A model generated the notes under the pieces. The model ran no database searches. It worked only from the letters and a program-made list of their open reading frames with translations, and was not told the origin of the DNA. A program made the position numbers and the translations under genes. From contig JBJHDK010000005.1 of NCBI GenBank assembly GCA_050486505.1, positions 1 to 20,942 on the forward strand: DNA of 20,942 nt. Reading direction: 5' to 3'. This document shows, piece by piece, positions 4,095 to 20,942 of the stretch. Position 1 is the first letter of the stretch; every line of letters starts with the position of its first letter. The DNA is from Fibrobacteria bacterium. Its GTDB lineage: Bacteria; Fibrobacterota; Fibrobacteria; UBA11236.

Positions 4095-4526
4095 TCAGTT
4101 CTCCCCGAAGACGCGGATCCCTTCCTTCTTCGCGGCCCGCACCAGCTCCTTGTCGAAGCACACGAAGGTGACGTCGGGTTGAACCTTTCTGAGCTGGAGC
4201 AGGCAGAACAGGTGCCCGGCATCCGCGGCCCGCAGACGATGCTTGTCCAGCAGCTTTCGGACCATCGCATGATGACCTGCCTGAGGTTCAATGCCGAGAA
4301 AGTCGAAGAATGAGAGGTAGTGATTGAGCAGCTTCAAATCTTCCGGTGCCGCAGTTCTGCGCATCACGGCTCCATGAGCCTCCATTTCCATCCAGTTCCA
4401 TGAGTAGTTCTTGTCCGTCGCGATGTGAGCCTTGCGGGCTGCGGATGTATGCGGCTCCTGAAAGATCAGCGCCAGGATGGCGCTTGCATCCCAATACTGG
4501 ACTGAATTGTGCGAAGGTTTGGACAT
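4095..4526 (-). CDS. VapC/PIN-domain type II toxin
   Basis: YWDASAIL N-terminal PIN motif, LRAADAGHL, FVCFDKELxxAA; downstream of a Phd antitoxin. Confidence 0.88.
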   Translation of the reverse strand: MSKPSHNSVQYWDASAILALIFQEPHTSAARKAHIATDKNYSWNWMEMEAHGAVMRRTAAPEDLKLLNHYLSFFDFLGIEPQAGHHAMVRKLLDKHRLRAADAGHLFCLLQLRKVQPDVTFVCFDKELVRAAKKEGIRVFGEN

Positions 4527-4536
4527 GATCGGAGTC

Positions 4537-4857
4537 TCAATAATCCCGCTCGTTCCGAATCATTTCCATGGTGGAAATATCCGTTCTGCCATCGGGAGCG
4601 ACTCTGGGAGAAACCTTTGCCGAGCGGAACGGCTTGGGTTCTGTTTCGCGCAGATACAGCTTAACGTTCTTTTTCGCCGCTTCCTCAAGCAGGCGTTCCC
4701 GTTCGATTTTCCACGAAGGGATTTTGGATTTCTTCGTCACGGGCGCGAGGGTGGCGACGGGTTTGTTGCGCAGCATCACGGTGATGGTTTCTCCCTGTTC
4801 GACGAGCCGCAGGTAGTGGCTGAGGCGGTTTTTGAGTTCGGCGGTTTTGACCTTCAT
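4537..4857 (-). CDS. Phd/YefM-family antitoxin
   Basis: MKVKTAELKNRLSHYLRLVEQGETITVMLRNKPVATLAP is the Phd/YefM N-terminal signature. Confidence 0.92.
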   Translation of the reverse strand: MKVKTAELKNRLSHYLRLVEQGETITVMLRNKPVATLAPVTKKSKIPSWKIERERLLEEAAKKNVKLYLRETEPKPFRSAKVSPRVAPDGRTDISTMEMIRNERDY

Positions 4858-5432: not shown

Positions 5433-8065
5433 GGGTGGGCCCCCTGTGAGGGCGACCCGGCGGGTCGCCCGTACATGTGTGCCGGGTCGATCGGGCCCCC
5501 CAGGGTGAAATCAACCTTGGCCAGCGCCTCGCCGCGCAGGTCTTCGGGGTCGACGCCGAGGACGAGGGCGAAGATGGCGTAGGGGCTCATGGTCGATCCG
5601 TTCTCGGCGGCGCGGAGGCGGAGGTTCAGATGGCCGTCTTCGATCCAGGATTCGATGACCTCATCCTGGGCCTGAATGGTTTTGTCGCGGTGCATGCCCG
5701 CGGGAACGAGTCCATTCCGCAGACGCCCCAAACCTTGCTCGAGCGCGGAGAGGCCCCCCGAATAACTCTTGTCGAGACGGTACAATACGCTTTCGGTGCG
5801 CGGGACTTTCGGGAGCGCAGTCGGTTCGAGCGCGATGACGTCCATGCCTTCGGGAAGGCATTCGGAGAGACGGGCGCATGTGGTGTCCGCATCATCCAGT
5901 TTCCGCGAGAACTCGACGATGAGCATTTCACGGCGCGATTCGAGACCGAGCGGGAGGGCGCCGGTGTTCTTGATCTGCGGGCGCGGGTTGTATCCCGACG
6001 ACATGCGCACGGGGAGGCGCAGGCGGCGGAAGGCCTTTTCGAAAAGGTCGAGCGTGTTCTGGTGCGCGATGAAGCGGGAGAGCCCGGTCTTGCGGTAGAT
6101 GAGGCGGTGGGGGAACGATCCGTCGGAGTTGCGCGTGCGGCGCTCGGCGGCCATGGCGGCGATCTCTTGCGGCGTCCTGCTTTTGGCGACATGGCGCACG
6201 GGATCGAGGCCCAGCTGCGTGTCCTCTCCGTTGCCGGGGATGCCGCACTTTTGGCAGTCGCCCCATTTGCAGTCGGGCACGGGCGCGGCGTCTTCCTTGA
6301 ACATCTTCTTGTATTCGTTCTTCAAATACCCTTTGTTCGCGCCGGCGTGGATGAAGTCCCAGGGGAACACTTCGTCCATCTCGCGCGTGTCGTAGATGCG
6401 CGACATGTCGTAGTTGTTCTCGTCCCAGATCTTCTTCCATCCCTCGAAGGAGAAATGTTCGCCGAAGGATTCGAAGACCATGCCGCGCTTGTAGGCCTCG
6501 TAGATCATCGACGACAACGAACGGTCGCCGCGCGAGTAGAAGCTTTCGACCCAGGCCAGACCGTAGTCGGCCCAGGTGATGCGCACGCCCTTGGTGTAGC
6601 GGAAGGCCTCGCGCACGTAGTCGATGTGGCGCTTCACCGTGGGCTCGTCCATGAAGGCCACCCACTGCATGGGGGTGAACGGCTTGGGGATGAGGATGCC
6701 GATGTTGGCGTGCACGGTATTCCTCGGATTGTGTTTCCTGGCAATCGCGTGCAGGTTGCGGATGAGTCCGCAGAAGGCTTCCATGTCTTCGAGGTTCTCG
6801 GTGGGGAACCCGATCATGGTGTAGAGCTTGATGTTGTGGAAGCCGCTTTGAAAGACGCCTTCGGCGGCTTCGTACATGTCTTTGTCGCTGATGGTCTTGT
6901 TGATCATCTTGCGGATGCGTTCGGATCCGGTCTCGGGCGCGAAGGTCGTGCTCTTGCCGCCGGTGAGCGCTGCCGCCTTGCGGGCGATGTTCTGCCCGAA
7001 GCTGTTGGCGCGCAACGAGGGCAGCGACAGGTCCATGCCGTCGAAGCTTTCGTCTTCGACCATGTAGTCGAGCACTTTTTCAACGGGCTTGTAGTCGGCG
7101 GTCGAGAGCGACAGCAGTCCGAGTTCGCGCTCGCCGGTGGCCTCCATGCCGCGCTTGGCGAGGTCGATGGTGTCGTCGGCGCTGAGCTCGCGGTTGGGGC
7201 GGTACCAGTAACCGGCCTGGCAGAAGCGGCAGCCTTGCGTGCAGCCGCGCATGACTTCGACCGAAAAGCGGTCGTGCACGAGTTTCATGTGGGGGACGAG
7301 GTTTTTCACCGGATAATCGGCGGGGTCGAGTTTTTCGACCCAGTGTCGCTTCACGCTCTTCGCCCGGAGGTAGGGACCCTGCGAGGCCTCGACCTGCGGG
7401 ACGGTTTCTCCGCGGGCGTTGGTGGTGACGTCGAGCAGGGCGGGCACATACACGCCGCGCAGCTCGGCCGCTTCGCGCAGGATGTCGATGCGCGCCTTGC
7501 CGGCGCGGCGCCCTTCGCCGAAGAGGCGCAGCAGCTTGGGCGCGAGGCCCTCGCCGTCGCCGATGACGAAGAGATCGAAGAAGTCGGCCACCGGCTCGGG
7601 ATTGGCCATGCACGGCCCGCCACCGATGACGAAGGGCTCCAGCTCGCCGCGATCGCGCGCGAAGGCGGTGACGCCGCCGAGTTCGAGGACGTAGGGGACG
7701 TTGGTGAAGTTGAGCTCGGTTTGCAGCGAGATGCCGACGGCGGTGAATTCGGAGATGGAGCGGTACGATTCGAGCGTGTACAACGGAATCCCCGCAGCGC
7801 GCATGGCGTCGCCCATGTCGGGCATGGGTGCGAACGCCCGCTCGGCGGCGAGGTCGTCTTCGCGGTTGAAGAGGTGGTAGAGCACCTTGGTGCCGTTGTG
7901 CGACATGCCGAGCTCGTAGGCGTCGGGGAAGACGAGGGCGATGGAGGCGAGCAGCGACCCGGGATCTTTGACGACCTGGTTCGCCTCGCCGCCGAGGTAG
8001 CGTCCGGGGTTTTTGACCTTGGGGAGGATGCGCGGGAGCGCGGTGCGGATTTCGGCTGGATTCAT
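5429..8065 (-). CDS. B12-binding radical SAM protein (TIGR03960-like) fused to a C-terminal DUF2344/TIGR03936-like domain
   Basis: FPDAYELGMS, RGCTQGCRFCQAG (CxxxCxxC), TFAPETGSER, IPKPFTPMQW, C-terminal CxxxxCxxC cluster, then FIAHQ..FRRLRLPVRMSSGYNPRP. Confidence 0.92.
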   Translation of the reverse strand: MNPAEIRTALPRILPKVKNPGRYLGGEANQVVKDPGSLLASIALVFPDAYELGMSHNGTKVLYHLFNREDDLAAERAFAPMPDMGDAMRAAGIPLYTLESYRSISEFTAVGISLQTELNFTNVPYVLELGGVTAFARDRGELEPFVIGGGPCMANPEPVADFFDLFVIGDGEGLAPKLLRLFGEGRRAGKARIDILREAAELRGVYVPALLDVTTNARGETVPQVEASQGPYLRAKSVKRHWVEKLDPADYPVKNLVPHMKLVHDRFSVEVMRGCTQGCRFCQAGYWYRPNRELSADDTIDLAKRGMEATGERELGLLSLSTADYKPVEKVLDYMVEDESFDGMDLSLPSLRANSFGQNIARKAAALTGGKSTTFAPETGSERIRKMINKTISDKDMYEAAEGVFQSGFHNIKLYTMIGFPTENLEDMEAFCGLIRNLHAIARKHNPRNTVHANIGILIPKPFTPMQWVAFMDEPTVKRHIDYVREAFRYTKGVRITWADYGLAWVESFYSRGDRSLSSMIYEAYKRGMVFESFGEHFSFEGWKKIWDENNYDMSRIYDTREMDEVFPWDFIHAGANKGYLKNEYKKMFKEDAAPVPDCKWGDCQKCGIPGNGEDTQLGLDPVRHVAKSRTPQEIAAMAAERRTRNSDGSFPHRLIYRKTGLSRFIAHQNTLDLFEKAFRRLRLPVRMSSGYNPRPQIKNTGALPLGLESRREMLIVEFSRKLDDADTTCARLSECLPEGMDVIALEPTALPKVPRTESVLYRLDKSYSGGLSALEQGLGRLRNGLVPAGMHRDKTIQAQDEVIESWIEDGHLNLRLRAAENGSTMSPYAIFALVLGVDPEDLRGEALAKVDFTLGGPIDPAHMYGRPAGSPSQGAHP
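5450..5475. repeat. REP palindrome inside the 3' end of the radical SAM gene
   Basis: GGGCGACCCGGCGGGTCGCCC (5450-5470) is identical to 2821-2841 and is followed by GTACA. Confidence 0.85.
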
Positions 8066-8490
8066 GCGTATTTCTTGATTCTGGACGGGGTTAAGGCCCG
8101 CCGGAAGGGGATTTGCAAAGGTAGGAAACGGAGGGAGAATGAGGTAAGAGCCATGAAGTCGCCGGAGGCGACTGAATCATTTAGCCCTCACTCCGGTTTT
8201 CGAGCCTGCCCCGGCGAAGGCCGGGGGTGGGGGTCGGGGTGGGGCGAAAACGGCTTTTATGGGGGGCCGGATGGGGGCGATGCGGTGGAGGGGGTTGTGT
8301 TGGGAAGAGTCATATGACAACTCGAGTGGATCCGCCGGAAATTTGGTTGGGGGGACGGTGGGGATGAGTTATAATGGAGGGCTATATCATGGGAAACTTC
8401 TCACATTCTGTTGGGATTCGCGGGGCTTGCCGCGTTATACCATAGGGCTCTGTGTTATTCGGTTCTGATCGGGAAGATTGTTAGCCCGAA

Positions 8491-9783
8491 ATGACGTCAA
8501 GAAAACCCAAGGAAGCCAACCGCGTCATGGCAAGCAAGTCGCTGAACCAAGGTCTGGGTGCCGCTAAGGTGGCCAAGCAGGATGAGTTCTACACCCAGTA
8601 TATCGATATCCAGAAAGAGGTCGAGGCGTACCTTGAGTTCGACCCCAGCACGTTCCGTGGTAAGGTTGTCTACTGCAACTGCGACGACCCCTTCGAAAGC
8701 AATTTCTTCAAGTATTTCGCCGCGAACTTTAACAAGCTTGGCCTTAAAAGGCTTGTCTCCACTAGCTATGACGGATCTCCCATCGCAGGCCAAACAACGT
8801 TGTTCCCGGAATACGACGAGGGGAATGGTAAACGCCAAAAGCCCAAGGCGCTCGCTGTCATCCTCGATCATGTGAAAGATGAAGACGGTGATGGTGCCGC
8901 GAACATAACCGACGTCGAACTTTTTCTCAAACGGAACAAGGCCGCCAGAACAGCATTGCGGGGCACCGACACATACCCCGGTGGCGATTTCCGGAGCCCG
9001 GAGTGCGTAGCACTACTAAAAGAAGCCGATATTGTGGTCACCAACCCGCCCTTCTCGCTTTTTCGCGAGTATGTTGCCCAGCTTGTGGAGTACAGTAAGA
9101 AGTTCCTGGTTATCGGCAATGTCCAGGCGATCACCTACAAAGAGATCTTTCCACTCATCAAGGCAAACAAGCTTTGGATGGGCGTCACCATTCACAGTGG
9201 CGACCGTGAATTTCGAGTACCAGACCACTATCCATTGAACGCTGCTGGCTCGCGCATCGACGAAAATGGCGTCAAGTACATCCGCGTCAAAGGTGTTCGC
9301 TGGTGGACGAACTTGGATCATGGCCGACGCCACGAATTATTGCCCCTGATGACCATGGCGGACAACTTGAGATTCAGCAAGCACAAGGAGATCAAGGGAA
9401 AAGCGGCATACGGCCGGTACGACAACTACGACGCGATTGAAGTTCCCTTCACCGACGCAATCCCCGGCGATTACAACGAAATGATGGGAGTCCCCATCAC
9501 CTTCCTCGACAAGTACAACCCCGACCAATTCGTGATTCTGGGGATCACGCAGTCTTGGGACGGGAGCGCTTCAAAAATCTATCCCAGGCAAATCCAAGTC
9601 GACAAAAACGGTAAAAAGTCGGAAGTGACAAAACTGAATGATGGAGCGGCAACCAAGGTTGACACCCCTCCAGACGACCAGACTTACTACATCGTCGGCG
9701 GCGACTTCTTCACAAAATCCTATTGCCGCCTCCTCATCCGCCACCGCCGTCGCGCCCGGCCCACAAAGGGGACGAAAAAGTGA
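8491..9783 (+). CDS. Adenine-specific DNA methyltransferase, EcoRI family
   Basis: [37 protein letters not shown] (catalytic NPPF), [22 protein letters not shown]. The start may be ATG 8527. Confidence 0.92.
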
Positions 9784-10946
9784 AAACCACTCTGCGAACC
9801 GACATCACTGTCGCCGACATCTGCGAGGGCTTCGTGTACAACGAACTGGAAGGTAAGGGGCTGTTCGGGCTAAGCGGAATGCTCACAATTCAGCCCGAAT
9901 ACCAGCGAAATTACATCTACAAGGATGGTGATGGAAAGAGGGAGCAAGCGGTCATTCACTCGCTGCTTAAGGGGTATCCGCTCGGCCTGATTTACTTCAA
10001 TAAAGTCGGCGAGAAAGCGTTCGAGGTGCTGGATGGCCAGCAGCGAATTACCAGCATCGGTCGGTTCGTTACGAATAAGTTCGCGATCATTGACGCAGGA
10101 AATCCCAAGAACTACGACAGCCTACCCGCCGATCTGCAAGCCAAGATTCGAGACTCGAAGCTTCTGATCTATGAGTGCGAAGGCACGGAGAGCGAAATTA
10201 AGCAATGGTTTGAGACAATCAACATTGCTGGTTCGCCCCTCAACTCCCAGGAGCTTTTAAATGCGATCTACTCAGGCCCGTTCGTGACGCTTGCGAAAGC
10301 CGAGTTCAGCAATAGCAAGAACGCCAACATCCAGAAGTGGAGCGCTTATATCAAAGGCGACGTCAACCGTCAGGAGTTCTTGGAGCGGGCATTGAGTTGG
10401 GTGAGTAAAGGGGAAATCGGCGGCTACATGAGTGCCCATCGCAATGACAACAATATCAACGAGCTCAAGACCTACTTCAATAGTGTGATCGACTGGATTT
10501 CGGGCGTCTTTAATGATGTCGAGAGTGAAATGCGGGGGCTTGAGTGGGGCCGGCTTTACGAGGAATACCATTCAAAATCATATGATCCGACTAAAGTGTC
10601 TGCAGAAGTGAGGCGGCTTTATGGTGATCCGTACGTCAAGAATCGCCGTGGTATCTTCGAATACATTCTTGGTGGCCTTAAAGATTCGAATCTTTTGGGC
10701 GTACGCGTGTTCGATGATGCAACAAAGAAATCTGTCTACGCCAAGCAGACTAAAGCTGCCGAAGCCAGCGGAATATCAAATTGTCCGCTTTGTGCAGTTG
10801 GCCATTCTGCCAACAAGAGCAAGATATGGAAGTCCTCCGAAATGGACGCTGACCACGTTTCCGCATGGAGTAAAGGTGGTGAAAGCTCAGCCGAAAACTG
10901 CCAAATGCTCTGTGTTACCCACAATCGATCCAAAGGCAATCGATAA
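9780..10946 (+). CDS. DUF262 (GmrS-like) plus C-terminal HNH nuclease; probable restriction partner of the MTase
   Basis: GTG at 9780 overlaps the MTase TGA. Motifs [20 protein letters not shown], then [26 protein letters not shown]. Confidence 0.88.
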
Positions 10947-11117
10947 ACTGCGAGTTTCACGTCTCGCCTAGTGCAGCAAGGGCTGAAAGCAGGAACCGGC
11001 GAACGATCTATTGCTGTGCAAGACTCACAATAGCCGGGCATTAGGGGGCAGGCTCAGCCTGTGTGCTAGTGCTTGAGCTTTCAGATGGGCGTCAAATGCC
11101 ATACGAGGATTCATCCG

Positions 11118-13289
11118 ATGAGGTTAACTGAACTATCGATTACGAATTACCGGGCGCTTCGGGATGTGACGATTCCTCTTTCCCGTTTTGGTTGTCTAAT
11201 CGGTGAGAACAATTCGGGTAAGTCCACCTTCTTGCAGGCGTTGGCTTTGTTTTTCTCTGGCAACAAGTTGGGGCCTTCCCATTTCTTCGACGAGGCCGAA
11301 CCTATCCGCATCGCAGTAACTTTCGATGATATCGGTGAGGCAAACTTGGCCCGACTGGCAGATGAGCACCGTACAAGGCTTGCTGGGATCGTTAAAAATG
11401 GCCGCATTGTTCTCGTCCGTACCTACGACACCACTGGGAAGAGCTCACTGCTCTATAACACGCTGACACCTAACGACGCTCGTTTTTCTGCGGAGAATAT
11501 TGCCAACCTTGTGAAGGGCGGTCGTCCAGGGCAAGCCTTTGTCACCAAAGTGGTGAACGAATTCCCGGAACTGACCGGCATCGTTGATGCGACCATGAGT
11601 CAGGAAGTCGTCAAGCAAAAGATTCAGGAACTTGCAGACTCATTACCAGATGATCAGAAGGCTCCTGCCGATCAGGCGCTGCCCACCGGCATTGATAAAA
11701 GTATCCAACCGATGCTGCCTGACCCGATCTACATCCCGGCGGTTAAGGACCTCGCCGATGACATCAAGACAACCGAGAGTACCCCATTTGGAAAAATTTT
11801 AGCCATCTTGCTTCAGGCGGTTGAGCCGAAATTGCCGGATGCCAAGAAGCTCTTCGAGGAACTCAACACCAAGCTCAATCTTGTCCAGCAGCCTGACGGG
11901 ACGGTCGTGGATGGACGGCTCGACGAAGTGAAGTTGATCGAGTCCACCGTCGAAAAGTATGTTCGCGAGAGTTTTTCTGATGTGGCACTTCGCATCGCCA
12001 TACCGCCTCCGGAGTTGAAGACCGTATTCTCGTCAGCGCGCATTTATGCTAATGATGGCGTAGACGGCCTGATCGACTCCAAGGGTGATGGTCTGCGTCG
12101 CGCAATCATTTTCTCCATTCTGCGATCCTACGTAGAACTCAAAACAAGGCTTGCACCAATCGCGGCGTCAGACGAAGCACCTGCCCAAGCTGCCGAACCG
12201 ACGCAGCCCCAGGTGGAACCCGCTCCCGCATCTTATCTACTGTTGTTCGAAGAACCCGAGTTGTTCCTTCACCCCAAGGCACAGCACACCCTTTTCGATG
12301 CTCTCCGTGTGTTCGCCAAGGAACACCACGTTCTCGTTACCACGCACTCCCCGATGTTTTTTGATCCCAGTGCAACCGAGACGTTCGTCAAGCTGCGGAA
12401 GGAGTCGAATGCTGCGATAGCATCTAGGCCATACACCCAGGTTCAGCCCGTTGATCTGTCTGACATGACCGCCAAGGATCAGTTCCAGATCATCTGCTTC
12501 GAGAATAACAATGCAGCCTTCTTCGCGGACACAGTAGTGCTTGTCGAAGGTGATAGTGACTACCTCCTCATGCCGCACATCGCCAGAACCCTTAATTCCT
12601 CGTGGGATGTTGCGCAGGTACCGTTGCTGTTCGCTCGCATCACAGGCAAAGGAAACATTCGGCGATACCGTGAGTTTTTCACGCGCTTTGGTGTTAGGGT
12701 GCCGGTCATTGCCGACCTCGACTTGTTGGTAAATGGTTTCGACCATATCGCTCCCACCGAATCGGCGAAAACCGCGAGGGCCAATCTTCTCGCAACGGTC
12801 GATGCGCTGATCGTGCCAGATACCAACGGCCCATCTGCGCGAGAAGCCAGAGCTGCTCACGAATCTGGCGAATTGCGGGGCCTCTGGCGAAAGGTCAGAG
12901 ATTCCCAGGCCGCTTTTCAGGCCGGTACCTGTACGCAAGCGGAGCATGATGAAGCTGTGGAGTCATTCTTCGCATGGCAGCGCAAGGCGGATCGGCTCAC
13001 CGTCCTCCAGTCTAACACCGATGAGGCGATGCTTCGATTGAAGTACGAGTTGCTAGAGATTCTGCGGGGGTTCGACGTCTATGTTCTTGAACGCGGCGCG
13101 ATCGAGCAGTACTACCCGGACACCATCACGGGGGCGGATAAGCCATCCCTTGCGCAGGACTTCTGTACCAAGGTCGCGACACGAGAAGATATTCTTGCCT
13201 GTTGTGGTGATCAGCCAGTAGGGGACGGCGTCACGCGTGTTAAAGAGTTTGATCTCATCTTCAGTCGGATATTCAATGGAAATAGTTGA
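11118..13289 (+). CDS. OLD-family ATP-dependent nuclease (ABC ATPase + TOPRIM)
   Basis: ATG 11118 with GAGG RBS; Walker A GENNSGKST, signature KGDGLRR, Walker B LLFEEPE, H-loop TTHSP, TOPRIM VEGDSD and DLD. Confidence 0.9.
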   Translation: MRLTELSITNYRALRDVTIPLSRFGCLIGENNSGKSTFLQALALFFSGNKLGPSHFFDEAEPIRIAVTFDDIGEANLARLADEHRTRLAGIVKNGRIVLVRTYDTTGKSSLLYNTLTPNDARFSAENIANLVKGGRPGQAFVTKVVNEFPELTGIVDATMSQEVVKQKIQELADSLPDDQKAPADQALPTGIDKSIQPMLPDPIYIPAVKDLADDIKTTESTPFGKILAILLQAVEPKLPDAKKLFEELNTKLNLVQQPDGTVVDGRLDEVKLIESTVEKYVRESFSDVALRIAIPPPELKTVFSSARIYANDGVDGLIDSKGDGLRRAIIFSILRSYVELKTRLAPIAASDEAPAQAAEPTQPQVEPAPASYLLLFEEPELFLHPKAQHTLFDALRVFAKEHHVLVTTHSPMFFDPSATETFVKLRKESNAAIASRPYTQVQPVDLSDMTAKDQFQIICFENNNAAFFADTVVLVEGDSDYLLMPHIARTLNSSWDVAQVPLLFARITGKGNIRRYREFFTRFGVRVPVIADLDLLVNGFDHIAPTESAKTARANLLATVDALIVPDTNGPSAREARAAHESGELRGLWRKVRDSQAAFQAGTCTQAEHDEAVESFFAWQRKADRLTVLQSNTDEAMLRLKYELLEILRGFDVYVLERGAIEQYYPDTITGADKPSLAQDFCTKVATREDILACCGDQPVGDGVTRVKEFDLIFSRIFNGNS

Positions 13290-13405
13290 AGACGCGTAGT
13301 TGCCGACACCTAACAATATCATGTAGAGGGCGGTTCTACGCGCAACGACAGGAAAGAATGCTGGCCTTCGCTCAGACGAAGGACAAAATTGAAGGATAAC
13401 TAGCC

Positions 13406-14728
13406 ATGCATGAAATCATCTGTCCGCATTGCAACAAAGCATTCAAAATCGATGAAGCTGGATATGCCGACATACTCAAGCAGGTTCGTGATCACGAGTT
13501 TGAGCAGCAGTTGCACGAACGACTCGAGTTGGCCGAACAGGACAAGCTGAATGCCGTTGAGCTCGCGACAACCAAGGTCACCAGCGAATTAGAGAAGGCA
13601 GCCGCAGCCAAGGATTCTGAGATTGAGAAACTGAACGCCAGGCTCGATGCTGGTGAGATCGCAAAAGAACTCGCCGTAGCTCAAGCGCTAAGTGACGTGG
13701 AAAAAGAGCGAGATAGACTCGCGAACGAACTCAAGCAAGTAGAGCGTGACAATCAGGCCGCTTCTCAACTTTTCGAGGCGAAGCTTGCAAATGAATTGCA
13801 GAAAGCAGCTGCAACCAAAGAATCAGAAATTCAGGAGTTGAAGAACGACCTTGAGCGTGAAAAGCTTGAAAAACAGCTCGCCGAGACGGCGCTCAAAGAC
13901 AAGTACGAGACGCAGATAAAGGATAAAGAAAAAGAGATAGAGCGTTACCGAGACATGAAGGCACGCCTATCGACCAAGATGGTTGGAGAAACCCTTGAGC
14001 AGCACTGCGAGATCGAGTTCAATCGTATTCGTGCGACCGCGTTTCCGAGAGCCTTTTTCGAGAAAGACAACGATGCGCGGACAGGGAGTAAGGGGGATTA
14101 CATCTTTCGTGACTCGGTTGAGGACGGCACCGAAGTCCTATCAATCATGTTCGAGATGAAAAACGAGAGTGACGAAACAGCTACCAAGAAGAAAAACGAA
14201 GACTTTCTCAAAGAGCTCGACAAAGACCGTACCGAGAAGGGTTGTGAATACGCCGTCCTGGTTTCACTTCTTGAGCCTGATAGCGAGCTTTACAATTCCG
14301 GCATAGTTGATGTGTCGCACCGTCATCAGAAGATGTATGTCGTCCGGCCGCAATTCTTCATCCCGATTATTTCGGTGCTGCGAAACGCCGCTCAGAACTC
14401 ACTCAAGTATAAAACTGAGCTCGCGTTAGTGAAATCGCAAAACATTGATATCACGACCTTCGAGAACGATCTCGAGGCGTTTAAGACAGGCTTCGCTCGG
14501 AATTACGAACTGGCGTCCAAAAAGTTTAAGACGGCTATTGAGGAGATCGACAAAACCATCGACCATCTTCAAAAGACCAAAGATGCGCTACTCGGTTCTG
14601 AAAATAATCTCCGCCTTGCCAATAACAAAGCTGATGATTTGACCGTCAAGAAACTGACTAAGGGTAACCCCACAATGGCCGCAAAGTTTGCTGAGCTTAA
14701 GAACGATGAGGTGCCCGAAGTCGAATGA
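13406..14728 (+). CDS. DUF2130-family coiled-coil protein
   Basis: IICPHC N-terminus, long coiled coil, [39 protein letters not shown]. Confidence 0.88.
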
Positions 14729-14765
14729 AATGAGTCGTGCCCGCATCTCCGCTGAAGAGGTTGAC

Positions 14766-14822
14766 GGGTAGCAAGTCATTACTGGCGACCGGCTAGGCCG
14801 GTGCCATATCTCGACGTTAGGT
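14766..14822 (+). mobile_element. Degenerate integron attC site (57 bp)
   Basis: GGGTAGC (R''-like, AAC changed to AGC)-AAGTC-ATTAC-TGGC(G)ACCGGC TAG GCCGGT GCCA-TATCTCGAC-GTTAGGT (R' = GTTRRRY). Lies between two co-oriented genes. Confidence 0.6.
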
Positions 14823-14841
14823 AGTCGCTTGGAGATATGAG

Positions 14842-15192
14842 ATGGGACTCCGATTCCGCATAGGTCCGTTCACGTTCGGCCGCACAGGCACGCGTTTGAG
14901 TCTGTGGTCCCGCGGGTCGGCCATCTCTATCCCTTTTTTCAAGAAGAAAGGCCGCACTTTCGGCAAGATCGGCTTCGGTCCGTTCAGCTGGCATTTCGGT
15001 GGATCGCGTCGAAAGAAGGCAGATGAAACGCAATCACAAGACAAAAGCGCGAAGGGTGCGTGGAGAAACAATCCCGCTACTGAACGGCAAAAGCGCTTTG
15101 CCGATGATCTGGGCATTCGATATCCGGAATCCGTAACCAGAGGCGAACTATCAGACGTGATTTCCAAGGTGACAGGGAAGCAACGAAAATGA
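14842..15192 (+). CDS. Small basic hypothetical protein (DUF4236-like N-terminus)
   Basis: MGLRFRIGPFTFGRTGTRLSLW start, C-terminal PATERQKRFADDLGI..TRGELSDVI motif, GGAG RBS; directly follows the attC-like site. Confidence 0.6.
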   Translation: MGLRFRIGPFTFGRTGTRLSLWSRGSAISIPFFKKKGRTFGKIGFGPFSWHFGGSRRKKADETQSQDKSAKGAWRNNPATERQKRFADDLGIRYPESVTRGELSDVISKVTGKQRK

Positions 15193-15310
15193 TTCGTTTA
15201 TGCCCAACAGTGCGCTCTACCGGATATCGTTATCCACCTACGCATTACGGTGTTCACGGACGCCACGCTGGACAACTTCGTATCCTTCCCGTGACGAGGA
15301 GGGAAACAAA

Positions 15311-16018
15311 ATGAAATCCATCTACACCTTCGCAACCGCAAGCATCCTCACCCTGGGCGCGATGGGCTGCGACATCCTGACTTCTGACGACCCGAATTCC
15401 GAAGATTTCCGTTTCGGATACAGCTACAACCTTATTGTAAGTGACAGCCTGCCACGCTTGCAAGGCGACTCCCTCTACGTCCAGGTCAGCTACAGCGGCT
15501 GCGGGCCCGGCCACGCGTTCACGCTCGAGTCTTCCCAAGCCGGCCCGTCTTCATATGAAATCTGGTTATTCAAAGAGAATGCAGAGGATTGTCTCGCCGC
15601 ATTAGGCGAAACGCGCGCGTTCAAGGTTCCGGATGAGGTCAGGGACGCCCAATCAGTTGAGCTCGTTACCCCCACCAACGAGCGGATCGAGTTGATTCCG
15701 GAGCCCACAGAGGACGGCGATACCAACCGTTTCGGATACAGTTATACCCTTATCGAAGGAGACGGCTTGCCGCGCCTGCAAGGTGATTCCCTTTATGTCA
15801 CGTTGGGCTATACCTGCGCTGCGTCGTTCACGCTTCGGCATATGGAAACCGGTGATTCGTCCTATGAGATCTGGTTGCATAACGCCGGGACGATGTTGGC
15901 TTGCGCGGTTCCGGTGATCGACAGCGCGAGGGCGTTCAAGGTTCCCGATGAGGTCAGGGACGCCCAGTCCGTTGAGCTCATTGCCCCCACAAACGAACGG
16001 ATCGAGTTGAAGAACTAG
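15311..16018 (+). CDS. Lipoprotein paralogue 1 (signal peptide + B + B repeat domains)
   Basis: GAGGAGG RBS, signal peptide with lipobox GAMGC, two ~105-aa repeats RFGYSY..LQGDSLYV..C..YEIWL..C..RAFKVPDEVRDAQSV..ERIEL. Confidence 0.85.
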   Translation: MKSIYTFATASILTLGAMGCDILTSDDPNSEDFRFGYSYNLIVSDSLPRLQGDSLYVQVSYSGCGPGHAFTLESSQAGPSSYEIWLFKENAEDCLAALGETRAFKVPDEVRDAQSVELVTPTNERIELIPEPTEDGDTNRFGYSYTLIEGDGLPRLQGDSLYVTLGYTCAASFTLRHMETGDSSYEIWLHNAGTMLACAVPVIDSARAFKVPDEVRDAQSVELIAPTNERIELKN

Positions 16019-16083
16019 AGGTGCCCTCAAAGTGCCCTGATGCCCTCAAGGCGCGCGGCGATTCCACCGAGCCCCCCATCACG

Positions 16084-16109
16084 GCACCGACCGCACAGAA
16101 ACGCCCCCG
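16084..16109 (+). repeat. Junction repeat copy 1 (GCACCGACCGCRCAGAAACGCCCCCG)
   Basis: Direct repeat also at 16820, 17534, 18409 and 19479, each preceded by a C-rich CCCC-CAYCAC-like tract. Confidence 0.9.
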
Positions 16110-16140
16110 TCACGTACTCCCTTGGCCGGATCCGAATTTA

Positions 16141-16291
16141 TGCAACAGCTTGTTGCACAATTGCCGCACGCGTCGTGTGCAACTCCGCGCAGCTTTCGCT
16201 GTCACATCCATCTCACTCTTTCGGATCCCAGCCAGCCACTTTCCCCCCAAAGCCAAAATTCCCCCACGTCAACTGCTGGCACACGAATTGC
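16141..16291 (+). promoter_or_regulatory. sigma54 (-24/-12) promoter with upstream palindromic enhancer-like sites
   Basis: TGGCAC-ACGAA-TTGC at 16277-16291. Upstream are TGCAACA-GCT-TGTTGCA (16141-16157) and GTTGCACA/TGTGCAAC (16152-16183). Confidence 0.65.
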
Positions 16292-16396
16292 CGCGGTATC
16301 CGAAAAAGGAATCGCACCATGGCACAAAAACACCTCAACTCAGTCAGACTTACCCCCCCGGCATCGGCACCAACCGGATTATTAGCTTATCCCGGT

Positions 16397-16690
16397 ATGA
16401 AAACCCTCGAAGCGGATGTGAAAGTCGGAGCCGACGGCAGCCTGAAGCTGCTCGTGCCCCTGCCGGCTTGGCTCAAGCCGGGCCGCCGCCATGTCGTGCT
16501 CGTAGTTGATGATTCGGCACCCAGCGCAAGAGCAAAAGTGTCGGCGAAGGTCTCGGCAGTGCCGTCAAAGAAGGCGAACGCCAAACGCTCCAACCCCGTT
16601 GATGCTCTTCGTAAAATCGCCCGCAAAGGCGGGGTTGGCATTAAGGACCCCGTCGCCTGGCAGCGGGAAGAGCGTCGTGACCGCTTTTAG
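16397..16690 (+). CDS. Putative antitoxin (DPVAWQRE-type); alternative in-frame start at 16319
   Basis: MKTLEADVKVGADGSLKL..P..HVVLVVD N-terminus and IKDPVAWQREERRDR C-terminus, a type I recall preceding PIN toxins; followed by a PIN remnant. Confidence 0.7.
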   Translation: MKTLEADVKVGADGSLKLLVPLPAWLKPGRRHVVLVVDDSAPSARAKVSAKVSAVPSKKANAKRSNPVDALRKIARKGGVGIKDPVAWQREERRDRF

Positions 16691-16779
16691 AGAATGCCAT
16701 TCCACTTGTGACGCGAAACACCAAAGATTTTAGACACATTCCGAACCTTGAACTCGTGAATCCTTTCGACGAATTCTAA
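16687..16779 (+). pseudogene. C-terminal remnant of a VapC/PIN toxin
   Basis: Hand translation LENAIPLVTRNTKDFRHIPNLELVNPFDEF* matches the PIN C-terminus (LVTRNxKDF..NP). No start codon or N-terminal part is present. Confidence 0.8.
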
Positions 16780-16819
16780 GAGACATTCGGTCGCAGCCGT
16801 CAAAACCACCCCAACCACC

Positions 16820-16845
16820 GCACCGACCGCGCAGAAACGCCACCG
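16820..16845 (+). repeat. Junction repeat copy 2
   Basis: GCACCGACCGCGCAGAAACGCCACCG, followed by the lipoprotein promoter/RBS block. Confidence 0.9.
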
Positions 16846-16888
16846 CAAATTCGTATTGTATTCTTCCTGTGACGAGGAGGGAAATACA

Positions 16889-17488
16889 ATGAAACACCTC
16901 TACTCCCTTGCGGCCGCAATCACCCTCGCCTTGGTTGCGATCAGCTGCGACATCCTGCCTTCCGGCGAAAACCCTGATTCCCAAAACATTCGCTTCGTGC
17001 CCGGTGAGCTTCTCGTCGAAATGAACCAGGGATACACCTCCAATGACCTGGACTCCCTGTTGGCGGGTCTCGAACCCGAGCGCAGTGGAGGCTTCATTCC
17101 GGGGGTCATCCGCGTTGTCGTCCCCGAAGGCCGGGAGACACATTGGGCCGCGCTTCTGGACAACGAAGAAATCATCCGCGCCGCGCGGATCAACCGTTTC
17201 GGATACAGCTACAACTTTATTGCAAGCGACAGCCTGCCACGTTTGCAAGGCGACTCGCTCTACGTCCAGGTCGGCTACAGCGGCTGTTCACCCGGCCATG
17301 ACTTTACGCTCGAGCATTCCCAAACCGGCGCGTCTTCTTTTAAAGTCTGGCTGTTCAAGGAGTATGAAGAGTTTTGTCGTGCCGCCTTTGTCGAAGTGCG
17401 CGCGTTCGAGGTTCCGGATGAAGTCAGGGACGCCCAATCGGTTCAACTCATCAAGCCCCTCGATGAACGGATTGAGTTGAAGAACTAG
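16889..17488 (+). CDS. Lipoprotein paralogue 2 (signal peptide + A + B domains)
   Basis: GAGGAGG RBS, lipobox VAISC, A domain IRFVPGELLVEMN..., one B repeat ending ERIELKN. Confidence 0.85.
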   Translation: MKHLYSLAAAITLALVAISCDILPSGENPDSQNIRFVPGELLVEMNQGYTSNDLDSLLAGLEPERSGGFIPGVIRVVVPEGRETHWAALLDNEEIIRAARINRFGYSYNFIASDSLPRLQGDSLYVQVGYSGCSPGHDFTLEHSQTGASSFKVWLFKEYEEFCRAAFVEVRAFEVPDEVRDAQSVQLIKPLDERIELKN

Positions 17489-17533
17489 AGGTACCCTTAG
17501 GGGGGCGGCGATTTCACCGAGCCCCCCACCAAC

Positions 17534-17558
17534 GCACCGACCGCACAGAAACGCCCCG
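17534..17558 (+). repeat. Junction repeat copy 3
   Basis: GCACCGACCGCACAGAAACGCCCCG. Confidence 0.9.
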
Positions 17559-17724
17559 TCAAGGTTTTGCGCCTTTTTTACACTATTTCATTTATTTCCG
17601 ATTAAATGATTCGTGAAAAGAATCCGTGGGCCGACAGGGACATCCATTGATGAATCGGAAACGGTCAAGTATTTTCAGCCCCGAAACAGCAGACCTTGAA
17701 GGTTGTATTTCAAGGAACTTGATC

Positions 17725-17913
17725 ATGGCCAAACCGATTGCACCCACGCCTCCGATCACCGGAAAAGCCGCCATCGCCTTCAACGCAAAGGCGGATCGTA
17801 TTGCGCGTGGTGAAATCACGGATGCCGAGCGCAAGGCTGCTGCCGATCTCTTCGATCGCGTCTTCGCATCCTACCGTCCCTCCCAGCTCCCTCGCCGCAC
17901 AGACACGCAATAA
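17725..17913 (+). CDS. Small putative antitoxin of a GNAT toxin
   Basis: AAGGA RBS; MAKPIAPTPPITGKAAIAF resembles the MAKPIxxTPxLxGxxAxxF small proteins found before GNAT genes. Confidence 0.65.
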   Translation: MAKPIAPTPPITGKAAIAFNAKADRIARGEITDAERKAAADLFDRVFASYRPSQLPRRTDTQ

Positions 17914-18276
17914 TCTGCCAAGCTCGCAAGATTAGGGGTCGCCAAAACACATCAGGGAAAAATGATCGGATCCTGGATCATTGAGTTCCTGAAGGCCTAC
18001 TTTCTCCTGAACAACAAAACCGGGTGTCGCTACTTGACTGTGGACGCCTATCCGCATCGGACCAAGTTCTACGAAAGCAACGGTTTCACCAGATTCGGCC
18101 CGATGTCCCCCGATCCTCAAGCCGAATACATCCACATGGAGTACGACCTCAAGATCACCAAGGACCTGTATGATGGGGATCCCGCAAGGCTGGAGCTCGC
18201 AAAAGCCATGATCAACGAAACCCTGAGCCTCGATGGTTTCGGTTTGGCATTAGCGCGCGTTCAAGGTTCCGGATGA
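17914..18276 (+). pseudogene. 5'-truncated GNAT acetyltransferase toxin
   Basis: Frame opens right after TAA 17911-17913: SAKLARLGVAKTHQGKMIGS..KTGCRYLTVDAY..FYESNGF (acetyl-CoA motifs). The N-terminal half is missing and the 3' end runs into a lipoprotein remnant. Confidence 0.75.
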
Positions 18277-18343
18277 AGTCAGGGATGCCCAGTCCGTTGA
18301 GCTCATTGCCCCCACAAACGAACGGATTGAGTTGAAGAACTAG
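18254..18343 (+). pseudogene. 3' remnant of a fourth lipoprotein paralogue
   Basis: Encodes RAFKVPDEVRDAQSVELIAPTNERIELKN*, near-identical in DNA to the end of paralogue 1; downstream 18344-18433 matches 16019-16109. Confidence 0.9.
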
Positions 18344-18408
18344 AGGCGTCCTCAAAGTGCCCTGGTGCCCTCAAGGCGCGCGGCGTTTCCACAGAGCCCC
18401 CCACCACC

Positions 18409-18433
18409 GCAGCGACCGCGAAGACGCGCCCCG
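18409..18433 (+). repeat. Junction repeat copy 4 (diverged)
   Basis: GCAGCGACCGCGAAGACGCGCCCCG, in the same position relative to the lipoprotein stop as copy 1. Confidence 0.75.
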
Positions 18434-18556
18434 CGATGTCATTTGACATGAGCCGATAACCCCCCTCAGAGGGGCTTCCTGCAACTTCGCCTTCACCAAC
18501 ATTCCCATTCTTGCCTGCCCCGCCCCGCATTTCCGCTGAAATCACGGAAAATCCGG

Positions 18557-18571
18557 CGGCACGTTCTTTGC
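18557..18571 (+). promoter_or_regulatory. Putative sigma54 promoter
   Basis: CGGCAC-GTTCT-TTGC with correct GG-N10-GC spacing. Confidence 0.5.
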
Positions 18572-18663
18572 CAAGAACCGGTACCATGAAAACACTACAG
18601 CAGAATGTCCCCGGCAGGTTGACGGATTTGCGGCGGGGAGCGCAAGGCACTACATTGTCTTAC

Positions 18664-18981
18664 ATGAGCCCTCCCAAGAAAACAATCAAAAAGACCGTCA
18701 AGAAGAGTTCAGCGAAGAGTTCCGTGAAGGGGCCCGTGAAGTCTCCCGACAGGAGCGCCGGCAAATCCGCATCCCTGACGATCCGGCTTGACCCGCAAAT
18801 GGCCCGCTTGTTGGATGAGCTCGGTCAGGAGACGAACAAGTCGCGCAGCGAGATCGCGCGCGACGCGCTCCGTCGGCAACTGCGGCTGGCCCGGTTCGAG
18901 GCGATCCGCAAGCGCCTGATGCCTTATGCCGAAGCCCGGGGAATCCTCACCGACGAAGACGTATTCGCCATCGTTTCCTGA
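18664..18981 (+). CDS. Ribbon-helix-helix (CopG-like) antitoxin with Lys-rich N-terminal tail
   Basis: SLTIRLD..LDEL..KSRSEIARDALRR..AEARGILTDEDVF. TTGCGG-17 nt-TACATT promoter ends 7 nt before the ATG. Confidence 0.85.
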   Translation: MSPPKKTIKKTVKKSSAKSSVKGPVKSPDRSAGKSASLTIRLDPQMARLLDELGQETNKSRSEIARDALRRQLRLARFEAIRKRLMPYAEARGILTDEDVFAIVS

Positions 18982-18989
18982 GGCGCGCC

Positions 18990-19391
18990 GTGAGAGTCTT
19001 CTTCGACACGAACGTGCTCGTCAGCGCGTTCACCGCCCGCGGGCTGTGCAACGAGCTGTTCAAAGGGGCCACCGTCTCGTGTACGCTCGTCGTCTCCGAC
19101 CCTCTGCTGGGGGAAGCACGCCGCATTCTCCTGGAAAAATTCAAGGCCCCGCGGGAGTACGTCGACGAAGCGATCGCCATCATTGAAGAAGATGCCGTGA
19201 AAGCGCCGACCGCTTCCACTCTCGAGATCCGGATCAAGGATCGGGACGATATCCGGATTCTATCGTCCGCGTTTCACGGAAAGGCCGACTTCTTCGTCAC
19301 CGGCGACAAGGAAGTGCTCGCCCTCGAAAACCTCGGCCCCATGCGCATTCTTTCGCCACGGGAGTTTTGGGGCGTGCTTCGAGGCCGGTGA
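18990..19391 (+). CDS. PIN-family toxin (TIGR00305/PIN_3-like)
   Basis: MRVFFDTNVLVSAF, DRDDIRIL, ADFFVTGDKEVL, ILSPREF. Confidence 0.9.
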   Translation: MRVFFDTNVLVSAFTARGLCNELFKGATVSCTLVVSDPLLGEARRILLEKFKAPREYVDEAIAIIEEDAVKAPTASTLEIRIKDRDDIRILSSAFHGKADFFVTGDKEVLALENLGPMRILSPREFWGVLRGR

Positions 19392-19478
19392 GCTCATCGT
19401 CATACGTTCAACCCGGCGACTCCACCCTCCCACGGCGAGACTGCGCCGGGGGCGCTGTTCGGGTAATCCCCCACCATC

Positions 19479-19504
19479 GCACCGACCGCGCAGAAACGCC
19501 CCCG
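19479..19504 (+). repeat. Junction repeat copy 5
   Basis: GCACCGACCGCGCAGAAACGCCCCCG, followed by the same promoter/RBS block as copy 2. Confidence 0.9.
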
Positions 19505-19547
19505 CAAATTCGTATTGTATTCTTCCTGTGACGAGGAGGGACGTACA

Positions 19548-20468
19548 ATGAAACACCTTTACTCCCTTGCGGGCGCAAGCATCCTCGCCTTGGCCGTGAT
19601 CAGCTGCAACATCGTGTTTAACGGTGAAACCCCTGATTCCCAAAACATTCGCTTCGTACCCGGCGAGCTTCTCGTCGAAATGAACCACGGCTACACCTCC
19701 AATGACCTGGACTCCCTGCTGGCGGATCTCGAACCCGGGCGCGGCGGAGGCTTCTCTTCCGCAATCCACCGCGTTGTCGTCCCCGAAGGCCGGGAGACGC
19801 ATTGGGTCGCACTTCTGGACAAAGAAGAAATCATCCGCACCGCGCAGCTCAACCGTTTCGGATACAGCTACAACCTTGCCGAAAAGGACGGCTATCCCTA
19901 CCTGCAAGGCGACTCGCTCCATGTTTGGGTCGGCTACAGCGGCTGCGATCCCGATGTCGACTTTTCGCTCGAGCACGCCCGGACAGGTCCGTCCTTTTAC
20001 GAGGTCTGGTTGTTCAAAGAGGAGGAAACCGACTGCGCGGCCGCATGGATCGAAGAGCGCGCGTTCAAGGTTCCGGATGAGGTCAGGCACGCCCAATCGG
20101 TTCGGATCATCAAGCCCATCGATAAACGGATTGTGTTGATTCCGCCGCCCATGGGCGGAGTCGACAGCATCATCGGGTTCGGAGACCCCTACACGCTCCA
20201 TCAACGCGACGGTTATCCCTACCTGCAAGGCGACTTCCTCCATGTCTGGATCACCTATACCGGTTGCGGCGGCGAGACCGTTTCCCTCAAGTCTTCCCGC
20301 ACCGGCCCCTCGTCTTACGACATCTGGCTCCACCTGGAAGAGCGCGTGATCACGTGCCAGGCCGAAGTCGGCATGAAGGGAGGAATCAGGGTCCCGGATG
20401 AAATCAGGGCGGCCCTATCGGTTCAGCTCATCACGCCCCAGGGGGATCGCATCGAGTTGAAAAATTAG
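19548..20468 (+). CDS. Lipoprotein paralogue 3 (signal peptide + A + B + diverged B')
   Basis: GAGGAGG RBS, lipobox AVISC, A domain highly similar to paralogue 2, two B repeats, ends RIELKN. Confidence 0.85.
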   Translation: MKHLYSLAGASILALAVISCNIVFNGETPDSQNIRFVPGELLVEMNHGYTSNDLDSLLADLEPGRGGGFSSAIHRVVVPEGRETHWVALLDKEEIIRTAQLNRFGYSYNLAEKDGYPYLQGDSLHVWVGYSGCDPDVDFSLEHARTGPSFYEVWLFKEEETDCAAAWIEERAFKVPDEVRHAQSVRIIKPIDKRIVLIPPPMGGVDSIIGFGDPYTLHQRDGYPYLQGDFLHVWITYTGCGGETVSLKSSRTGPSSYDIWLHLEERVITCQAEVGMKGGIRVPDEIRAALSVQLITPQGDRIELKN

Positions 20469-20590
20469 GGCGCTCCTGCCCGCTGTCATTTGACACGACC
20501 GGTGAGGCACGCCGCATCCCCTCGCCCCTGCAATTCTGGGACATACTCCGAAACCGCTAACCTCCCCGCAGGTGTTAAATTCCCTCCTCC

Positions 20591-20932
20591 ATGTCCACAG
20601 CGACCTCGCACGTGAAATCCTACAAGCGTCCCGCCAAAACGCTTATGCTCGACCGGGCCACGTGCATCTCGTGCGCCGGGTGCGTGGGTACCTGCCCCGA
20701 CGAGGCGCTCGACATGTTCGGCCTCGACCTGCAGGTGTTCCAGGACAAATGCACCTATTGCACCATCTGCGTACGGTTCTGCCCCGTCGGGGCGCTGTCG
20801 ATCGAAAAGCGCGCGCCGCAGCCCGAGGATAATGCGATGCAGGCACCCAAGACTCCCGCAGACTTCCACTGGCCGGCGCCGGGCAATGTAGGGGCAAATA
20901 ATCATTTGCCCCTACAGGACGGGACGCCGTGA
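20591..20932 (+). CDS. 2x[4Fe-4S] dicluster ferredoxin
   Basis: CISCAGCVGTCP and CTYCTICVRFCP motifs; C-terminal extension includes a REP palindrome. Confidence 0.88.
   Translation: MSTATSHVKSYKRPAKTLMLDRATCISCAGCVGTCPDEALDMFGLDLQVFQDKCTYCTICVRFCPVGALSIEKRAPQPEDNAMQAPKTPADFHWPAPGNVGANNHLPLQDGTP
20887..20916. repeat. GTAG-type REP palindrome inside the ferredoxin 3' end
   Basis: TGTAGGGGCAAAT-AATC-ATTTGCCCCTACA, a perfect 13-bp stem. Confidence 0.8.
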
Positions 20933-20942
20933 AGGCGTCCCG

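Follow-up and report, generated by a model that had tools for sequence, protein, structure and literature searches.

A short direct repeat, R, recurs five times in a 20,942-nucleotide stretch of DNA from a Fibrobacteria bacterium (contig JBJHDK010000005.1; "the window" is this whole stretch), each copy lying between a lipoprotein gene, or the remnant of one, and a toxin-antitoxin (TA) module. R belongs to a 36-bp motif made of two C-runs at a distance of 30 bp, instances of which are found at hundreds of sites throughout the genome to which the window belongs (G000, 99% complete by markers; related genomes and loci are referred to by G and L numbers). The five copies descend from one site. We lean, on chances little better than even, to the reading that R was copied with a duplicating lipoprotein gene and that later rearrangements likely ended at runs of C: ordinary turnover of an array rather than a cassette system. 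The copies of R, and a further motif instance chained to one of them, are these:

16073..16109, + strand: R1, copy of the 36-bp paired-C-run motif
16809..16845, + strand: R2, identified by profile match and alignment
17494..17528, + strand: separate strong instance of the genome-wide motif, having a C-run in common with R3 (chained)
17523..17558, + strand: R3, identified by profile match and alignment
18398..18433, + strand: R4, degenerate copy
19468..19504, + strand: R5, with two inner substitutions in run X2

The first-pass annotation had reported a 26-mer beginning at 16084, 16820, 17534, 18409 and 19479, in the order Lip1-R-TA-R-Lip2-R-TA-remnant-R-TA-R-Lip3; all five copies are found at these positions and the order is as claimed. 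R1 and R5 match the 26-mer exactly; R2 departs from it by one mismatch, R3 by a 1-nt deletion and R4 by ~6 differences. The homologous core is longer, 36-37 bp, spanning one C-run to another. R1, R2, R3 and R5 differ from each other at 3-5 of 37 positions, and R4 differs from these at 7-9. (Compared with R1, R4 is altered at three positions over the first 22 nt and at ~6 in the remainder, and is possibly a hybrid with another motif instance.) A weaker motif instance at 16044, 29 bp 5' of R1, is chained to R1; a supposed sixth copy of R 5' of Lip1 was discarded, having given no score with the ungapped matrix and only a loose alignment. In G000, near-exact R is confined to the array, with five matches to a gapped profile at E<=4.3e-6 in 2.4 Mb and the next at E 3.6. 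There is one match with three mismatches across 31 family genomes, and no near-exact copy was found in JGI, viral and GTDB scans. Pairwise identity of motif matches centres on 17-18 of 36 positions, and it is because matches elsewhere agree to only this extent that the five copies of R can be said to descend from one site.

The upstream flanks of R1, R3 and R4, behind lipoprotein sequence, are alike (z 16-41; 80 nt, local alignment against shuffles), as are the downstream flanks of R2 and R5, before lipoprotein genes (z 47), and every other flank pair has z<=3.2. This is the attL/attR-like geometry that had been noticed on first inspection. The homology blocks stop at the edges of R, and hence rearrangements of the array used R. 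The junctions were checked against contigs of two runs, X1 and X2, only, and contigs drop rare variants. X1 contigs cover 0.94 of sampled words and cross the TA1|R2, R3, R4 and TA3|R5 junctions without differences. X2 crosses R5, and covers 14500-18040 in short pieces only, from which nothing follows. Two further runs, X3 and X4, gave no matching contig, and no RNA run with this sequence was listed. The R1|TA1 junction is bridged by no listed contig piece and is taken from the assembly alone. (The end of one X2 contig agreed with R1 but continued upstream into foreign DNA; this was not reproduced, is absent from the genome, and was dropped.)

That R belongs to something much larger is seen with an ungapped, un-iterated matrix built from its five copies, which finds 28 sites at >=16 bits in G000 versus 0-1 for reversed or shuffled matrices; with a Markov background the same matrix finds 57, versus 4-19 for reversed or shuffled seeds. 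A model-free count says the same: CCCC is followed by CCCC at a lag of 30 bp 1,078 times, where other lags give ~300, and a lesser rise is seen at a lag of 60. Runs of at least five C have a CCCC partner 29-32 bp upstream in 749 of 6,538 cases, versus 183-215 at three control spacings, figures that imply several hundred true sites. Gaps show the peak, as do genes on either strand, and most of it disappears when the genes are synonymously shuffled (GGGG pairs, 428 versus 131 on a baseline of ~85; CCCC pairs, 325 versus 238 on a baseline of ~165), a comparison on which a periodicity of the encoded proteins was rejected as its source. Between the two runs the motif is weak, with <1.1 bits at each inner position, and it is weak there in an unseeded profile too.

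Site locations were described from the ~570 sites of an iterated matrix, a set used for that purpose only and rejected as evidence of number; the densities rest on gene calls made within this analysis. The majority of sites are within genes, in either orientation, and their spacing along the genome is as if random. No strand polarity is found: contig by contig, the motif's two orientations are in balance (chi-square 24.6, 37 contigs), and its correlation with GC skew has rho -0.31 (p 0.098). Density per 10 kb is 7.2-9.7 in promoter-holding gaps, 2.7 in convergent gaps and 1.8 in genes; sorted otherwise, it is 7.9 between core genes, 5.1 at island borders and 1.7 between atypical genes, so that a special attachment of the motif to island borders was rejected. 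Sites in gaps point toward a same-strand gene 143 times versus 40, part of which bias may be compositional, and a -10-like hexamer follows paired runs in 22 of 491 cases versus 84 of 3,287 (p 0.026). The window itself has further instances in unrelated contexts:

869-904, - strand: motif instance
1362-1397, - strand: motif instance
5725-5760, + strand: motif instance
8259..8294, - strand: motif instance at the left end of the variable slot described below

The motif is a property of some members of the genus. Eleven other genus genomes were sampled, at 23-440 kb each. The G000 matrix finds 16.5 sites per 100 kb in G001, 11.8 in G011, 2.1 (one match) in G008 and none in the other eight (in G002, none in 440 kb); the motif is carried by three of the 12 sampled genomes, G000, G001 and G011. 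A further count in G001 gives 53 versus 2 in 380 kb, and this genome has its own lag peak at 30-31 bp. A strict form of the pattern occurs 12 times in G000, six times in G001, once in G011 and not at all in 29 other family genomes, and a second pattern occurs in two of 151 class genomes; these family and class tallies count G025 as negative. The ComEC and GyrA trees both split G000 from G001 and G011, so the carriers are not a clade, and the motif has therefore been gained twice or lost in between. At orthologous sites one sees substitutions and no 30-bp insert (25 of 50 spanning alignments are ungapped and four of 50 have gaps >=20). The motif arises by point substitution; the colinearity of orthologues disposes of a 30-bp in-frame insertion as its origin. 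Only one of seven ungapped orthologous sites in G001 scores as motif.

A spacing fixed at about three helical turns leads us to infer a protein that reads one face of the helix. Eight protein families were compared across genomes in search of this reader. Histones give no PF00808 or PF09123 match. HU/IHF proteins are present in two to four copies in all 12, with no carrier-specific change seen by eye, and ComEC is in 12 of 12, carriers and non-carriers alike. GyrA and Cas1 do not follow the distribution of the motif either, nor, as far as carriers that are 86% (G001) and 74% (G011) complete can show, do C5 and N4/N6 methyltransferases (PF00145 in G000 only, PF01555 in six of 12 without matching pattern). 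Some details were noted in passing: the sole C5 DNA methyltransferase match among these genomes is at G000:C41:16600-17763 (L205), an HU gene lies directly 5' of comEC across the genus (in G000 at C7:16543-19343, L124), and G000 ComEC is the longest branch of its tree (0.83 versus a median of 0.36). As to what the motif does, a chromatin or global-regulator site is the most plausible of three roles considered, though short of an even chance; an uptake or self mark under molecular drive is less likely, and mutation bias a little less likely again.

The genes and gene remnants among which R lies are as follows:

15311..16018, + strand: Lip1, predicted lipoprotein with signal peptide Cys and a ~95-aa domain in two copies; not assigned to a Pfam family
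16122..16170, + strand: short DUF1016/YhcG gene remnant, a palindromic stretch; also in G009, directly 3' of a lipoprotein remnant
16397..16690, + strand: small open reading frame (ORF) read as antitoxin 1 from position and a motif only; no family match
16684..16779, + strand: C-terminal remnant of a PIN/VapC toxin; weak match (VapC model, E 0.017)
16889..17488, + strand: Lip2; L034 has a 50%-identical relative as a cassette of an attC array
17725..17913, + strand: 62-aa ORF read as antitoxin 2 from position and a motif only; four relatives at 68-84% identity, no family
17914..18251, + strand: GNAT toxin-like gene, C-terminal half (N-terminal half missing); PF13673 at E 1.6e-4, below cut-off
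18252..18343, + strand: lipoprotein gene remnant (3' part), which together with its trailer matches the Lip1 end at 94% identity; same start point as the G009 remnant
18664..18981, + strand: ribbon-helix-helix (RHH) antitoxin; PF01402 above Pfam cut-off
18990..19391, + strand: PIN_3 toxin, intact; PF13470 above Pfam cut-off; the RHH-PIN pair is 78% identical to a G009 pair without R
19548..20468, + strand: Lip3, with no R 3' of it

The earlier description of the cargo as three TA modules thus stands for the RHH and PIN_3 genes, which pass Pfam cut-offs, and more loosely for the GNAT and PIN remnants, whose matches are weak; the two other antitoxin labels find no family match. The lipoprotein family is rare (nine proteins, three from the window; present in two of 121 class genomes), and a search of the ESM Atlas with Lip2 gave a best score of 0.76 and no usable name. 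Two supposed relatives, L035 and L204, were dropped as weak 36-residue matches (E 9e-5 and 2e-4). Because the 50%-identical relative of Lip2 is a cassette among six attC sites, the lipoprotein gene may first have come from an integron; the locus in question, L034:1-4473, is a low-GC integron cassette array of which the lipoprotein relative is the final cassette.

Several small palindromes lie about these junctions. The palindrome TGTCATTTGACA stands at 18437-18448 and 20484-20495, after R4 and after Lip3, with no other exact copy in the genome and no significant wider homology around its two copies. DUF1016/YhcG palindromic remnants are found at module junctions in the window (16122-16170, as listed) and at L021:8144-8187 and 9156-9186, and in G009 a perfect 31-bp palindrome of this type lies 3' of the PIN gene, so that related palindromes bracket RHH-PIN there. 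A sigma54-like GGCAC-N5-TTGC at 16277 shows no genome-wide enrichment, and sigma54-like boxes 5' of TA1 and TA3 were set aside on finding 23 occurrences of the pattern versus 23 in a reversed control.

A radical SAM gene and a ferredoxin gene enclose a 12.5-kb insert, and the array makes up its right part. The slot is empty (<250 bp) in four of the 11 other genus genomes (G005, G006, G007 and G008) and filled in G002 and G009; G004 and G010 have other DNA before the ferredoxin gene, and G001, G003 and G011 could not be judged. In G009 the slot holds a lipoprotein relative, a lipoprotein remnant with the same start point as that of G000, a short DUF1016/YhcG remnant and the 78%-identical RHH-PIN pair, with no R. 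In G002 it contains a small ORF and a DUF2283 gene, which we take for a TA pair, and no direct repeat is present. TA genes, then, collect in this slot without R. The left part of the G000 insert (window 8491-15192) has lower GC and encodes an EcoRI-type methyltransferase, a GmrSD-HNH nuclease, an OLD-family ATPase/TOPRIM protein and DUF2130; no motif instance occurs in this restriction-defence part. Elsewhere in the window are two more TA-type loci, neither bounded by R: an addiction-module antitoxin near tRNA-Pro (290-550) and a Phd plus PIN pair (4095-4857). Just 5' of the ferredoxin gene, G010 has a single attC-like 47-mer (L060:7820-7866); in the window, after the ferredoxin gene, at 20887-20916, is a GTAG-type palindrome resembling repetitive extragenic palindromic (REP) elements, with copies across the genus.

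Whether R might be a recombination site was approached from several sides. The absence of attC structure, as first reported, holds up: DNA folding of 80-nt windows on both strands gives no bottom-strand hairpin at R beyond shuffles (z -1.96 to +1.02), a hairpin seen by eye around R being likewise not significant, and AAC...GTT core triplets are not at the ends of R, which ends CCG and then TCA, CAA or CGA. An attC-like scan of the window finds no site at R, and a model made from the six L034 sequences gives no match to R at E<=5, this being a narrow model that also missed the G009 attCs. Those are 64-bp sites (L056:48-111, 719-782, 3477-3531) belonging to an integron, and R bears no likeness to them. 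The protein family search of the window finds no recombinase, again in agreement with the first-pass annotation. In the whole of G000 the IntI model TIGR02249 stays below cut-off (it is above cut-off in G002, G003 and G009, three of the 11 other genus genomes); serine recombinase (PF00239) and Cas1 are not found, the DDE, IS110 and HUH families not having been searched for, and the two tyrosine recombinases (PF00589) read as XerC-like and phage-type. (G002 and G003 have two tandem IntI genes each, at L057 and L059; a scan found no attC nearby.) No empty Lip-R-Lip site or circle joint is seen in the X1 and X2 contigs, which drop rare forms; two joints listed on a shorter stretch come from the contig over R4-R5 and from the repeat within Lip1, which are other parts of the same array. 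None of 14 other TA-like pairs, picked by eye, is flanked on both sides by motif in one orientation, and among short direct repeats within 8 kb there is no second motif pair flanking cargo.

The DNA uptake sequences (DUS) of Neisseria and the uptake signal sequences (USS) of Pasteurellaceae are non-palindromic words specific to a lineage, occur on either strand and are frequent in resident but scarce in foreign DNA, and a USS spans ~30 bp; DUS pairs gather in convergent gaps as terminators. The paired-C-run motif resembles them in its non-palindromy, its presence on both strands, its lineage restriction and its scarcity in foreign DNA, and differs in lacking a strongly conserved 9-10 bp core and in being scarce in convergent gaps; ComEC, moreover, is in all 12 genus genomes regardless. 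PMC4390886 names DNA uptake sequences as a class. The nearest likeness is to HIP1, the highly iterated palindrome of cyanobacteria, which is also hyper-abundant in coding and non-coding DNA, spread by substitution, patchy among lineages and reported at the ends of a precise deletion (PMC5861425; PMC4390886; PMC13756078). HIP1 is an exact 8-bp palindrome tied to two methyltransferases and conserved in its positions, whereas the motif, a pair of C-runs over 36 bp, carries little information, has no palindrome and for the most part occupies different positions in G000 and G001. By this analogy the motif seems to work most like HIP1, without being a member, since it has neither palindrome nor exact word. 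The Chi, KOPS (FtsK-orienting polar sequence) and AIMS (architecture-imparting sequence) octamers (PMC5861425) are non-palindromic and occur about once per few kb, as does the motif, but they are strand-biased and it is balanced. Fixed-spacing motif pairs of unknown role, dispersed in genes and gaps, are described in Comamonadaceae (PMC5217627), and some Rhodoferax pairs include CCCCC, at distances of 16-31; their partner words are of TAGC type and not a second C-run, no CCCCC_CCCCC appears among the 10 CCCCC rows of supplement file 2, and section 13 and the CCCCC/GGGGG rows of that survey of 569 genomes hold no comparable C-run pair. Arrays of attC sites, including clusters of attC sites lacking an integron integrase (CALINs), also place a repeat between unrelated small genes, TA pairs among them (PMC4889954; 10.1101/2022.09.11.507474); R differs in having no bottom-strand hairpin and no AAC/GTT triplet, at which the integron integrase cuts (10.1101/2022.09.11.507474), and G000 has no IntI over cut-off. 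In microhomology-mediated tandem duplication (10.64898/2026.02.28.708716) short direct repeats end the duplicated units of a tandem array, as here, but R, at 36 bp, is an instance of a motif found all over the genome and has unrelated cargo between its copies. Nor is the motif a REP element, a miniature inverted-repeat transposable element or a clustered regularly interspaced (CRISPR) repeat: its instances are not near-identical, they are not inserted, and the array has no Rfam match (none in 15000-20942). A literature search whose reach ended short of subscription papers and bioRxiv supplements found no description of it.

How, then, might the array have formed? The slightly favoured course of events is that one tandem duplication placed R on both sides of a lipoprotein unit, and that homologous exchange anchored in the lipoprotein genes, with its far end resolved at C-runs or in another motif instance (the latter suggested by the mixed look of the halves of R4), would then have set TA modules already collecting in the slot between copies of R, two of them losing most of their toxin. 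The motif would be bound by a protein that reads two C:G tracts separated by about three helical turns and, like HIP1, would spread by substitution. That the lipoprotein unit was copied fits better than one duplication for each TA capture, because same-position copies are at least as alike as TA-flanking ones, on small numbers. The two copies on either side of one TA module (R1-R2, five differences; R4-R5, seven) are not each other's nearest relatives (R2-R5 and R3-R5, three each). Several observations weigh against this account. Homology ends within ~3 nt of the R edges at five junctions, which is beyond chance erosion and demands several separate ordinary events. Elsewhere, repeated-block ends coincide with motif edges in two of 136 cases versus 0.8 expected, which does not mark the C-runs as general breakpoints. 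Shared ancestry of the TA1 and TA3 leaders is not significant (z 1.5-2.0), no protein among the families tested across the genus genomes tracks the motif, and the iterated count of ~570 sites is inflated, shuffled seeds also growing to 233-619.

The first-pass annotation had proposed a possible TA-capturing, non-integron cassette system. In a refined form of this idea a host or visiting enzyme would recombine or cut at the motif, each insertion would duplicate the 36 bp from one C-run to the other, and R-bounded units could be excised and swapped. The exact attL/attR-like flanks with five boundaries at R edges, the three unrelated TA families between copies and the HIP1 repeats that flank a precise deletion in Synechococcus (PMC13756078) speak for it. 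It is nevertheless not borne out, and we think it unlikely. The two runs show no module-skipping joint (in contigs only), and no IntI over cut-off, serine recombinase or Cas1 offers a candidate beside the XerC-like and phage-type tyrosine recombinases. None of the 14 other TA-like pairs is flanked, nor is other cargo by a motif pair among short direct repeats within 8 kb; RHH-PIN lies behind a lipoprotein remnant in G009 without R, and the two copies around a given module are not the most similar ones. The proposal had itself allowed that a repeat scattered over the genome would argue against it, and R is so scattered, in degenerate form. We also rate as rather improbable a history in which R was retained before each gene as a promoter-side binding site while the surrounding DNA was replaced or eroded. 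A gene does follow every R, and the motif's density in promoter gaps, its orientation toward genes and the slight excess of -10-like hexamers are what one would look for; yet most sites are in genes on both strands, Lip1 has no scoring upstream copy, R5 shows no extra conservation (2 of 37 positions changed in X2 versus 15 of 508 overall), and the abrupt loss of homology beside 94%-identical DNA is left unexplained. TA cassettes are common in integrons, a lipoprotein relative sits among the six attC sites of L034, IntI is in three other genus genomes, and an attC-like 47-mer lies beside the G010 ferredoxin gene; an eroded CALIN with R as leftover attC sites is all the same very improbable and largely refuted, R having no hairpin, no GTT at its right end, no match to the (narrow) L034 attC model and no likeness to the G009 sites, and fitting the host's genome-wide motif instead. 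Least credible of all is partial misassembly of short repeats in a metagenome bin: depth is ~7-10 and R1|TA1 lacks a listed contig, but X1 spans the other junctions without differences, X2 independently spans R5, and the copies of R carry distinct substitutions.

There is also a bolder conjecture, to which we give only a slim chance: a patchily inherited protein may recognise the two-C-run sequence as a self mark, drive it into hundreds of sites, and cut or recombine at its C-runs so that entering DNA duplicates the mark. Were this so, the lipoprotein-TA array would be the first outcome of it to be seen: a cassette array founded on a mark spread over the genome and not on an att site.

Locally, the array is probably a matter of ordinary gene turnover. 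The bipartite genome-wide mark, in contrast, is apparently new to the literature. HIP1, uptake sequences and Chi, the hyper-abundant marks known so far, consist of short exact words; this one is 36 bp long, written by substitutions into coding DNA at hundreds of sites, carried by some species of a genus and not detected in close kin. The protein responsible for it would be a new kind of sequence reader, and with carriers and non-carriers in one genus the origin of such marks becomes testable by comparison of gene content.

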